Shown here piece by piece: positions 56,501 through 64,000 of a stretch of DNA of 64,000 bases. The position numbers were made by a program, and so were the translations under genes. The stretch's first letter is position 1. Each line of letters opens with the position of its first letter. Where the stretch lies: NCBI GenBank assembly GCA_951406725.2, contig OX597842.1, positions 6,696,001-6,760,000 of the forward strand, given 5' to 3'. This stretch comes from Octopus vulgaris (Eukaryota). The notes beneath the pieces are model-generated. The model made no database searches. It was not told the DNA's origin and worked only from the letters and a program-made list of their open reading frames with translations.

Positions 56501-59500
56501 ATGTGTGTGTGTGTGTGTGTGTGTGTGTGTGTGTGTGTGTGTGTGTGTGTGTCTGTGTGTGTGTGTTATATTTTGGTGGAAAACAATATCCACAAATGAA
56601 TTCTGAATTTAAGACTGCAGCCGTTTTGCTATAGATATATAATAATAAATATGAGGCACAATACCTCTGTTTAGGCTATGTCAGAAATGGCCAGAATGGC
56701 AGAGAAACAGAATTTGATAGAGCTGAGCAACTTTCATCTATTCAGTATTTCAAGCAATTGCTCTCAGAAGATGACAAAATGTAATGTCTTCTTATTTTGA
56801 TTTAGAAATAATAAAAGTATTCTTTATATTTCTTAAATGGGAACAGACATAGTTATTTGGTTAAAGAAATGGCTTCCTTGTTGATAGCTGTTATTTGATT
56901 ATATCTCAGCCAGGTATTATTTCCTACAGGGATTATAATTCTTTACTAAAATATTATGTTAATGGGTATTATTTTGGTGTTAGATTTTAAAAAGGTTTTT
57001 AGAATACTTTCTTGTTTGAATTATATTAGAGAGATAAGAAGAGTATAAATCCAGGAGTTATGTAAGATTATGTATTTACGTGTACGTGTATGTGTGTGTG
57101 TGTATCAATGCAGAAAGCAAAAGAGAGAGAAAGAAAGACACATTTAGATAGATAGATAGATAGATAGATAGATAGATAGATAGATAGATAGATAGATAGA
57201 TAGATAGATAGATAGATAGATAGGTAGGTAGGTAGATAGATAGGTAGATAGATAGATAGATAGATAGATAGATAGATAGATAGATAGATAGATAGATAGA
57301 TAGATAGATAGATAGGTAGATAGATAGGTAGATAGATAGATAGATAGATAGATAGATAGATAGATAGATAGATAGATAGATAGATAGATAGATAGATAGA
57401 TAGACTGATAAGAATCATTAACTGAACATTATAGACATCAGTCTCACTGGTTCAGAAGGGGATGAAAAGACCATGGGTCCTGCTCCTTCCTACAGATCCA
57501 GCAATTAGAAAGAAAAGATTCAATGGATAAAAGAACAAATTGACTGATAGATTGACATATTGATAAGAAATAGTTAAAAATCAACATCATATGTGTGTGA
57601 GTATATGTATGTATGTATGTATGTATGTATGTGTATATATATATATATATATATATATAATTTTTCAGTAAGAAAATTAGACAATATTATGGTTTTTAAT
57701 AAGTCCACGTTACCTGGCCATAGATTTCAGTTACAAAAAACTCAATCATTTTTTTTATAAGACATTATTATATTTTTTTCATTTTCCTTTGTTATACTTA
57801 CAAATCTGGACGAGTTGTTATTACGGACAGTTTTGGCATTGCCATAAGCCTCTAATACCGGGTTAGCTTGGATGATCTGGTCCTCAAGAGAACCCTGTTT
57901 TGTAGACGGTTATTGTTGTGTGTGTAAGTTTTGTAGGGTTCATCAGTTACGAAGGAAGGTTTTTTGAAGGGTAAATTTTTTGTGAAGGTTTGGAAATCAC
58001 ACGGAAAAGAGAAGAATATGTTAGACAGGGAAAAATTATAATGGAAAATATTTAGTTAAAAAAAAGTGCTGTTCATTGATTTGATCAGCCATCAGAAATA
58101 TCTGTGGAGCAAAAAATTTAAGGAGATTGAAGGGTTTTTTTGTAAGGTGGGTAGAGGTTATGGAATGAGCATTGCTATTCCTTTTTCAGTGAAGCTCTTT
58201 GAAACATGTCACATGACTATTTAGGGAAATATGAATATGTATCATTGGTCGATTGAGAAATTTGAGAAGTAAAAAATAATATGTACAAGTGTCACAGTGG
58301 ACGTTATAGTTTGCTATTTTTCTTTCATATATCATTGCTACCCCCCACAAAAAAAGACCCCTTTATTTTTTAATCTTGTCTGTTAAAATTGAAAATGGTT
58401 GAAATTATGAAGTATCAAAGAGCTTCAGAGAATGGTTATATATGAATACATACATATATACATACATACACTTATATATATATATATATATATATACACA
58501 CACACACGCACTTGCACACACACACTTATACACATATGTATGTATTATAAATACACAGACATCAAAAAAGATTATTATTACTATTAATATTATTAAACAA
58601 TATCACGTGTTATACAACATGACTCATAGTGACATAACATCTGTGGAGGTGACTGGTTAAAAGACAGACAAAGACAGAAAAGAAACAGAAGTTATAATAT
58701 ATATATATATATATATATATATATATATATATATATATGTAAAGGGAAAGTTTACGAAAATAAACAGAAGACGAAGGCAGGTGGAGTACAAACAAACAAA
58801 TGTATTAGACTAGTGCTCAGGAATAGAAAAAGTCTTTTATGTTTCGAGCCTACGCTCTTCGACAGAAAGATACACAGAAAAAAACAAGGAGAGAAAAAAA
58901 TGTGTGTAGGAGCTATGTGTTTAAGCTAGAAAAAGAAAGGAAAAGAGAATGGTTAGATTAATGTAGAAAATATGGGATGAAAAATTTTGGCTTTTTTTTT
59001 TCTCGCAAATGATTGGAAGACAGGAAGATAAATGGGGGGGAAATAATTTGGCAGGTTAAAACATTGAGGATTTGCTAGTATTTAATTGTTATTGTTATTA
59101 TTGTTATTATTATTATTGTTAATTTTTTGTTATTATTATTATTATTGTTATTATTATTATTATTATTATTATTATTGTTGTTATTATTATTATTGTTAAT
59201 ACTATTATTAATATTATTTTTGTTATTTAGTTATGTCTATCATTTGGTCCTCTGTAAATATATACATATATATTTATATATGTATATACACAAACACACA
59301 CACACGCATATATTTATTGAATATTTTTTATCCAATCTTTCTCATCTGCAAAGTTTTTGACTTCAAGTACTTCTTGATTGGTCAAATCTTGTTTGTCAAG
59401 AAGACAAATTTAGAGCAGATGGTTTACCATTTCTTCCATTATTTTTTGTTTTGAGGACACTAGACTACGATTTTAGTCAAGTACTTACGAATCTAGATGA

Positions 59501-61740: not shown

Positions 61741-64000
61741 CTAGAATTTTGTGAATGGGAAGTTTCGGGGTTTTTCAGATAGATTGAGAGATGAGTTTTT
61801 AGAGGGGTTGAGTAATAATTTTGTATTGTTGGTTTTAATTTTAGTTTAGTTTAGTTTATTGTTATTATTATTATTATTTTTATCATTATTATTTTATTTT
61901 AAAGTTTTGTGTTGTTATTTTTGAAGGAAGTTTAAAGAGTACGTTTGATAAGTTTTGAGTTTTAGAGGAAATGAGTCGGAATTCATTTCATTTGTTGATG
62001 TTGAATAAAAGATTTTTAAATAAGATAATGAATTTTGTTTAGAATAATTTTTTGTGTTGGGGAATTTTTGAAGGAGACAGGGAGAAAGATAGTGAGAGAA
62101 AGGCAGGCAGAGAAAGAATGATAAAAGAAAGCAAAGAAAATAATGTGAAAATTTGTACAAGTGAATTTTTAAAGATTGTAATAAAGCAAAAAAATAAAAT
62201 GAATAATAATAACAATTGACACAAACATATAAAGATTACACAGTTAACTCTGAGTTTAAATAAATATACATTTCTAATCACAAGTATGGTACATAATTAT
62301 AGATACATATATTCATATATACATATACTCACATACATTTGTAGTCAAACATCACAGCACAAACAACTTGTGTCTTAATATATATTTATGCATGTATGAA
62401 GAGTCTTTGGCAAAACTCTGAAATCACTACCACTATTCATAATGTGTATGTATATACATATAGTGTGTGTGTGTGTGTGTGTGTGTGTGTGTGTGTGTGT
62501 GTGCATATATTGAACAGTAGGTTCATTTTATTTCTGTTTAACAAGTTAGATTGATTTTGAGTATTTTCCTTTTATTTAATTAAACAGTTTGGTGATGATA
62601 ATTATATATATATATATATATGTGTATATATATATATATATATATATATATATATATATATATATATATATATATATTTATGTATGTATATATATACATA
62701 TATGAGCTGTGTATATATGGAGATCGTTTTCTATTTTACTTTGTGAATTCATACCTAAGAATGATATCCATATGTAGGGAGAAATATCCCTACAAAATAG
62801 AAATGTCTGGGAAAAAAACCTAAACAGTTGATTGCACTTATGGCCATCTTCAAATGCTGTTTATAAGGTGTTTTGTATTAATATCAATGTCATCCTTCCT
62901 TTCACAAGAATTATGCCCATAACTGAACTCAACCCTTATAAACATGCATTAATAAGCATTAGTATTTCAGTTAGTTTTAGAGCAGTTAGATTAGCTATTT
63001 TCTATTCAGTTATATTCACCCCACCCGTTATGTTAATTACACCCTTACTTGTGATATTTCCCAATACCGTTCAAATACATTTTCTGATGTTAAGAAACCT
63101 TAACTCCCTACCTAGGAGTATCAGCTATGCACATAATGTGAATGCTTGAATGATTCCATAGATATAACACTGCACCTTATAACACTACTATAAGTGGCCG
63201 CTGCAGACTATTGCTTTGAAATGAAGGCATATTGTTCACTTGTTTCAGGATTGTGAACTGACAAAATATATATATATATATATATATATCCATCTGGTTA
63301 TCTGCCTCTCTCTCTCTGTGTGTGCATCAAGGAAAGTGTTAGTGTATTTGTTCTGCTTGTAGAATGCAAAATTTTATTATTATTATTATCATTAATTTGA
63401 TAGTCTTAATATTATTGCATGATTTCCTTGCACAACTGAACATGTTTCTGCATACTTTGGATATGTACAGTGTTTTGGTTTTTAATTTTCGTTTTCCATT
63501 GTAACAATGATAAACACAGCTACAACAACAAAAACAATCACAACAATAACAACAACAAACAATGACGAAAACAACAAAACTTCCAAAATACAAAAATAAA
63601 TATACATAAAATATAACAAAATATCAAATGACAAATTTAATACTAATATTACAAATAATATGACTATTATGTGAAATTACTGCATTTCTAAATAGAAATA
63701 ATTGCTCATTACAATAGAATACAAAAGAAAATTATTGAATGCAATATTCCTAGTCTAATTTCAAATAGAAGCTGAAAAGCATTAAACCACAGTTTTCAGT
63801 TTGTCTAAAGATTTATGAAGAAATAAATATTTCATTTGATATACATCTCATATATGTTTGATGATTGATATTCAGTGTTAAAAGCCGATATTATGAAACT
63901 TGAAGTAGCCAGATAGATTGATAGGCCTGTAGAATGTATAGGCCAATTGTTATTATTTGTCAGAGGAAGTATAGACCAGTGCTTTTCAAACTTTTTGCTG

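Follow-up and report, generated by a model that had tools for sequence, protein, structure and literature searches.

In rat alpha-tropomyosin the branch point of exon 3 lies at -175 (Smith and Nadal-Ginard 1989, as cited in PMC1431707), and the published hallmark of such distant branch points is a branch motif near the 5' end of a long zone free of AG dinucleotides, with a pyrimidine tract adjacent to it (Gooding et al. 2006, PMC1431707; papers given by PMC number are cited throughout from partial texts). This layout is compared here with that of three alternative exons (a, b and c) in a stretch of 64,000 nucleotides (nt) of Octopus vulgaris contig OX597842.1 (positions 6,696,001 to 6,760,000 of the forward strand; the window), the minus strand of which carries most of a striated-muscle myosin heavy chain gene (Mhc) of this cephalopod. 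The octopus exons resemble the vertebrate distant-branch exons (PTB exon 11, nPTB, GABBR1 exon 23 and HTR4 exons 3-5; PMC1431707) in the AG-free zone of 150-500 nt, in the candidate motif and tract near its 5' end (b and c) and in the alternative exon downstream, and they resemble HTR4 (PMC1431707) in that several neighbouring exons have long zones. They differ from these vertebrate exons in belonging to an invertebrate, in the involvement of all three exclusive members, in the A/C-rich and G-poor spacer, in that the branch points are predicted, and in exon a, which is without CTRAY.

Alpha-tropomyosin and alpha-actinin SM/NM (Southby et al. 1999, via PMC1431707) share with the octopus array the muscle gene, the exclusive duplicated exons and the long AG-free zone, but their branch point lies near the upstream exon, whereas the octopus candidates lie 1.5-5.6 kilobases (kb) away. 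The U2AF-regulated human tandem homologous exons (TPM1/2, U2AF1, FYN; PMC5224494) are also duplicated exons, with branch and pyrimidine units that have diverged by insertions and deletions and moved upstream, but their zones measure 21-131 nt and usually only one homologue has a long one, whereas all three are long in octopus. Insect Mhc and Dscam (docking-selector pairing; PMC6071210, PMC3245913) share the exclusive multi-exon arrays and the choice of one exon out of many, but no shared docking site appeared in octopus in a weak single-genome scan. The exon itself belongs to cluster-3 of Mhc, known in scallops, oyster, snails and an annelid, and with two isoforms in the squid Doryteuthis (Kollmar and Hatje 2014, PMC3912159); the octopus array agrees with this lophotrochozoan cluster in the exon, its phase and its position after cluster-2, and has three copies. 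That paper, in the part of its text available, includes no octopus gene and mentions neither branch points nor polypyrimidine tracts.

The cluster-3 array of octopus Mhc

A rod exon of the Mhc gene in the window is 95% identical to an Octopus bimaculoides protein. By using the window together with adjoining genome stretches, 44 Mhc exons were placed, and three alternative exon paths through them are open frames of 1971-1976 codons with 0 stops. The gene contains four mutually exclusive clusters matching the numbering of Kollmar and Hatje (PMC3912159): cluster-2 (two exons, slightly outside the window), cluster-3 (the three exons a, b and c), and cluster-8 and cluster-11 (two exons each). Consequently, the array that the original prediction had named cluster-1 is cluster-3 in the published numbering. 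It is made up of tandem homologous exons of the same phase, spanning the end of loop 1 to switch 1 and located behind the cluster-2 exon. Exactly three close copies of the exon were found in the genome, and database proteins include one copy each, except for two gene models with two copies (P0003, P0021). Exons a, b and c are probably a genuine mutually exclusive array. The exons and their shared downstream partner are:

61633..61740, minus strand: cluster-3 exon a, 108 nt, phase 0/0, end of loop 1 to switch 1; its 36 amino acids are identical to squid isoform A chain 3i5f_A, and it is joined in RNA contigs
59489..59581, minus strand: cluster-3 exon b, 93 nt, phase 0/0, placed by tblastn and by the open joined frame
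57802..57894, minus strand: cluster-3 exon c, 93 nt, phase 0/0; its peptide recurs in the O. bimaculoides database protein P0001
50648..50711, minus strand: next constitutive exon, shared downstream partner of the array, with an ordinary acceptor and an AG-free zone of 84 nt

AG-free zones ahead of the three exons

Each of the three acceptors is preceded by a long zone free of AG on the transcript strand:

61743..62247, minus strand: AG-free zone of exon a, 505 nt, with a U-rich 5' part, then a pyrimidine tract, then an A/C-rich spacer
59584..59798, minus strand: AG-free zone of exon b, 215 nt
57897..58068, minus strand: AG-free zone of exon c, 172 nt

The lengths of about 505, 215 and 172 nt claimed from the sequence were exact when lengths and places were recomputed on the transcript strand, and no AG-free gap of the window on that strand is longer than the zone of exon a. 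With tandem repeats masked (the repeat finder picked up microsatellites only), zone lengths of 448 (a), 189 (b) and 174 nt (c) remain, which are ranks 1-3 among the 43 Mhc acceptors. As many as 170 non-repeat nt are reached by none of 62 control acceptors (rank test p=0.002), and the zones thus stand out from the background. Of the controls, 22 belong to other myosin genes in the same genome, namely 16 to the non-muscle myosin II paralogue and six to further myosins; the paralogue acceptors were picked by eye from tblastn, with one located exon left out. The single-copy homologous exon in the non-muscle myosin II paralogue has a zone of 45 nt, and the exons of clusters 2, 8 and 11 in the same Mhc gene have zones of 23-95 nt. 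Of the AG-to-AG gaps, 3454 end elsewhere than at an acceptor; eight of these have at least 170 non-repeat nt and one has at least 200. Among 3547 gaps, the next value is less than half of the 448 non-repeat nt of exon a.

The G content of the zones is 3.8-4.7%, compared with 15%, and of 243 windows, each 170 nt long, only three are at or below 5% G. The probability of finding no AG given the composition of each zone is 1.5e-4 (a), 0.012 (b) and 0.034 (c), values that overstate the effect because the AGs themselves set the zone borders; in a fixed 170-nt window, summed over the three exons, there are 0 AG and 8 GA. The AG-free zones are a real feature that goes beyond chance. They are nearly unstructured (-0.03 to -0.05 kcal/mol per base, no better than shuffles), which fits scanning, and a secondary structure bridging the zone was rejected since the energies equal those of shuffles. 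Elsewhere in the gene, the 263-nt intron ahead of constitutive exon E26 (15829-16087) is AG-free over 258 nt, 158 of them outside repeats, and has a normal proximal tract.

Acceptor strength and candidate branch points

The share of pyrimidines in the proximal region of the acceptor is 0.57 (a), 0.38 (b) and 0.43 (c); exons b and c have the lowest values among 65 acceptors, with no control (0/62) at or below 0.43. The candidate branch elements lie far upstream within the zones (negative positions are counted from the exon):

59711..59780, minus strand: candidate branch unit of exon b, TGTCTAAC at 59780-59773, A 59774 = -193, followed by a tract (best 20-mer 100% C/U)
57995..58027, minus strand: candidate branch unit of exon c, TGTCTAAC at 58027-58020, A 58021 = -127, followed by a shorter tract (best 20-mer 85%)
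62063..62142, minus strand: long pyrimidine tract of exon a, -323 to -402, 80-85% C/U
62243..62247, minus strand: predicted branch motif TTAAC of exon a, A 62244 = -504, at the extreme 5' edge of the zone
62145..62149, minus strand: predicted branch motif TTCAC of exon a, A 62146 = -406, adjoining the pyrimidine tract on its 5' side

The identical 8-mer followed by a tract, which had been noticed about 192 and 126 nt upstream of b and c, was found again in these places, as was the pyrimidine tract described 330-400 nt upstream of exon a. Two of the three zones contain a CTRAY motif with a tract at a distance of over 60 nt from the next AG, compared with one of 20 equally long non-acceptor AG-free gaps (Fisher p ~0.03), and the chance of such a unit in shuffles is 0.15 and 0.11. 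Of the four sense intronic copies of TGTCTAAC in 84 kb, one stands where a branch point would ordinarily lie, at -32 of the last exon. The weight of the shared 8-mer lies in the single shared 8-mer being the branch-like one. The flanks of a, b and c align poorly with each other, so that shared ancestry alone cannot explain the shared layout.

Other signals of this kind were observed around the array and elsewhere in the gene. In the intron between b and c (58960-58925, minus strand) an acceptor-like signal of textbook form consists of TCTAAC, a pure pyrimidine tract and TAG 28 nt further on, with no annotated exon; it could be a decoy or a cryptic exon. Immediately upstream of the exon b zone there is a second long pyrimidine tract with CAG at its end (59880-59812, minus strand). 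The intron between exon 2b and exon a (L002, 4000-3933, minus strand) contains an orphan CTAAC with pyrimidine tract and TAG, the last 13 nt of which are complementary to the exon c acceptor, inside the shuffled range. The introns around the second cluster-8 exon also contain orphan branch-plus-tract units (38876, 36692, 35628 and 35304).

RNA contigs at exon a

The assembled contigs of four of 24 runs (X1, X6, X7 and X14), presumed to be RNA runs and with exon-exon joins in three of them, were compared with the stretch of exon a and its zone only. In X6 and X7 the end of exon 2b is joined to exon a at the annotated acceptor, and in X1, X6 and X7 exon a is joined to the next constitutive exon with b and c skipped; loose contig ends occur at exon borders only (X1, X6, X7), and X14 gave two short repeat-type matches that are uninformative. 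Intronic contigs of X1 (depth 9) and X7 (depth 3.6), from two studies, stop without loose ends at 62257 and 62251, that is, 10 and 4 nt outside the 5' edge of zone a, and in X1 exon a is joined downstream while the upstream intron is still attached, with no upstream junction. Late removal of the upstream intron has been reported for distal-branch introns (PMC5378181), and the contig stops and the retained upstream intron are a weak hint in the same direction, as they fit a branch near the zone edge and late removal.

Cluster-3 arrays in other animals

A pattern scan of metagenome contigs gave at least 131 loci with a cluster-3 exon and its intron; no cephalopod orthologue was recognised among the matches listed, and prokaryote genomes and viral contigs gave 0 matches. 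Two of the loci, among the matches listed, are bivalve-like: L029, closest to Mactra and Mya proteins (81-83%), and L040, by its exon peptides. Both have four-exon arrays with short zones, of 19, 35, 40 and 61 nt in L029 (7143-9012) and of 26, 33, 116 and 87 nt in L040 (1637-3430). Their four cluster-3 exons compare with two described for bivalves in the available text of PMC3912159. In the two-exon loci (L010, L012, L014, L018 and similar ones) the acceptor of the first cluster-3 exon is AAG, which is rare and weak, with zones of 63-145 nt, compared with a median of 34 nt in single-copy loci, although these are related animals and not independent; the two-exon arrays are a milder parallel to the octopus layout. 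Repeated TTCGG/CTCGG words were also seen in their intron before the second exon.

Weighing of the explanations

Distant branch points are the best reading of the AG-free zones, one that we hold with moderate confidence and for which the candidate positions are predicted from sequence. Branching would take place far upstream, at -193 (b), -127 (c) and -406 or -504 (a), and the spliceosome would then scan to the first AG. By analogy with vertebrate work, U2AF and SF1 would be the factors that recognise the distant branch-plus-pyrimidine units, and step 1 would go ahead without the AG. Selection would act against any AG inside the spacer, as step 2 would use it instead. Regulators may bind in the A/C-rich spacer, which is unstructured, and the spacer may delay excision of the upstream intron, so that the three exons, which span 4 kb, have time to compete. 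Such a layout would make the exons weak and open to regulation, and would not by itself produce exclusivity. For b and c, the distal branch points of the original prediction explain the layout best, and for a they are plausible; weaker proximal candidates at all three exons temper this.

Several observations pull the other way. Proximal branch candidates lie at -15 (CTAAT), -29 and -45 in b, at -49 (CTGAT) and -31 in c, and at -52 and -35 in a. CTRAY is absent from the zone of exon a, the longest of the three. The claim that none of the three acceptors has a proximal tract was right in the acceptor sequences it quoted; the proximal pyrimidine share of exon a (0.57) is low, but it is equalled or undercut in six of the 62 controls, leaving only b and c as outliers. 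The identical 8-mer was rejected as stand-alone evidence, since b and c share some 8-mer in 88% of shuffles, and 11 of the 16 strong CTRAY-plus-tract units in the Mhc gene have no annotated acceptor downstream. Raw zone length was also rejected as evidence: tandem repeats make up 19% of the Mhc introns, and through microsatellites five of the 62 controls have raw zones above 170 nt (the constitutive exons E16 267, E22 264, E26 258 and E29 344, and the last exon 448). G-poverty accounts for most of the AG-free effect, and Mhc acceptors are G-poorer and longer-zoned than those of the non-muscle paralogue (median 76 compared with 41). Among human zones of at least 100 nt, only one half to one fifth are estimated to mark distant branch points (PMC1431707). 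No lariat-type joints were present in the contigs of the four runs at the exon a stretch, where contigs would rarely keep them, and the contig ends there can equally be explained by low depth, polymorphism, internal priming at an A-rich stretch or omitted records.

The comparative material weighs in the same sense. Among the metagenome matches listed, a zone of at least 150 nt precedes one of 146 acceptors (1/88 in the long loci and 0/58 in the short loci). The 88 come from 70 long loci with three fused-upstream ones dropped (75 distinct), and the 58 from 61 short loci, with two fused and three unparsed. A control system for molluscan myosin as a whole had been suggested; given the short zones of the two bivalve-like four-exon arrays (19-116 nt), the long AG-free layout is not mollusc-wide and, judged from the sequences sampled, is lineage-restricted.

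The proximal candidates lead to an alternative that we regard as somewhat unlikely, in which weak proximal branch points are used, the A/C-rich, G-poor stretch is a platform for regulators, AGs are purged as any upstream AG following the strong distant tract would outcompete the weak acceptor, and the distant motifs are decoys or holding sites. Besides the presence of proximal candidates at all three exons, it can draw on the enrichment of AAAC and CAAA over shuffles (p=0.001), on ACTAA, found seven times compared with 1.0 expected from background and 3.6 from shuffles (p=0.08), and on human minigenes, in which distal branch points made only a modest contribution beside proximal ones (PMC5378181). 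The element CCCCGAAA, with a rare CpG, lies about 30 nt ahead of the AG in both a and b (~61772-61765 and 59609-59602, minus strand); it is either a duplication relic or a kept element, and its occurrence in both exons also suits this alternative. However, the proximal candidates of b and c have no pyrimidine tract after them, no control acceptor has so low a proximal pyrimidine content, and the enriched motifs were chosen post hoc among 12. A neutral origin, by which slippage-derived A/C/U-rich sequence and strand-biased mutation left G-poor runs that end at these exons by accident, appears unlikely. The tandem repeat content of the introns, the five long raw zones among the controls, the eight non-acceptor gaps out of 3454 with at least 170 non-repeat nt, and the lack of zone conservation beyond this genome (in the two bivalve-like arrays and the metagenome matches listed) are what it would lead one to expect, but all three copies show zones in spite of their diverged flanks, exon a exceeds by far every other gap, windows as G-poor as these are rare, and GA is present where AG is absent.

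Exclusivity is a separate matter from the distant-branch reading. From the upstream donor to the candidate branch point the distance is 1859 nt for b, 1468 nt for c and more than 5500 nt for a. Steric exclusion of the alpha-tropomyosin 2/3 type was therefore rejected, and with it the idea that exclusivity is controlled in parallel to the vertebrate genes by such a block. Decay of double-inclusion products was rejected as well, since the exon lengths (108, 93 and 93 nt) are multiples of three and double inclusion stays in frame. With both excluded, some other mechanism is needed: distant branch points leave exclusivity unexplained, and competition of weak acceptors, regulators or RNA pairing is required. 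Competing long-range RNA pairing between a docking site and selectors, with the AG-free zones as a by-product or a second layer, would answer this need and is compatible with distant branch points; such pairing is described for Drosophila Mhc, Dscam, 14-3-3zeta and MRP1 (PMC6071210, PMC3245913). We consider it unlikely here, as no single site pairs at all three exons and the best duplexes, microsatellite leftovers aside, are at or near the shuffled range, in a scan that is weak because it used exact 10-nt seeds and 20 shuffles of a single genome, with no comparative data. In that scan, the exon a donor (61632-61619) could pair over 14 nt with 52151-52138, in the intron after exon c (-17.0 kcal/mol compared with -16.7 for the best of 20 shuffles).

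A bolder form of the distant-branch reading, which we put forward tentatively as a possibility, is that an old myosin exon array had its acceptors remodelled in cephalopods, with the branch sites of all three copies moved to 130-500 nt upstream. The variant would then be chosen by a race among distant units waiting at step 1, and neither steric block nor frame-shift decay nor a docking helix would take part. If this were true, distant branch points alone would govern a three-exon array in an invertebrate.

Other features of the gene and of a further array

Further observations were made on other parts of the gene. The second exon of cluster-11 (hinge; 13088-13010, minus strand) is strongly diverged from the first (14477-14399), with length, phase and splice sites retained, and the exon pair of cluster-8 (loop 2) lies at 41534-41447 and 37616-37529 (minus strand). 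A proline/glutamine-rich long open frame is present at ~24060-23340 (minus strand) in a 12.8-kb intron, where a catchin-type alternative first exon is expected. Outside Mhc, one exon of the octopus tropomyosin gene (L172 ~870-1935, G000:C4) is apparently repeated in tandem about four times; introns in this array are short, AGs are dense and long zones are lacking.

Meaning of the finding

The exon cluster has been described before, and distant-branch layouts form a recognised class rather than a new mechanism; the octopus array is probably a further case of this layout, with predicted branch points. No paper linking myosin cluster-3 exons with a distant-branch layout was found in a literature coverage that is thin on subscription journals. 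Loop 1 influences ADP release and sliding speed (PMC3912159), and the tuning of muscle speed in cephalopods is disputed, squid tissues differing in speed having been reported to contain the same isoforms, with their relative levels open (PMC3912159). If the distant-branch reading is true, this kind of splicing, mapped mostly in vertebrates in the papers cited, would extend to an invertebrate myosin, exact candidate nucleotides for the control of exon choice would be available (59774, 58021 and 62146/62244), and variants anywhere within zones of 170-500 nt could alter splicing. The choice among loop-1/switch-1 variants that would be controlled in this way bears on ADP release and on muscle speed.

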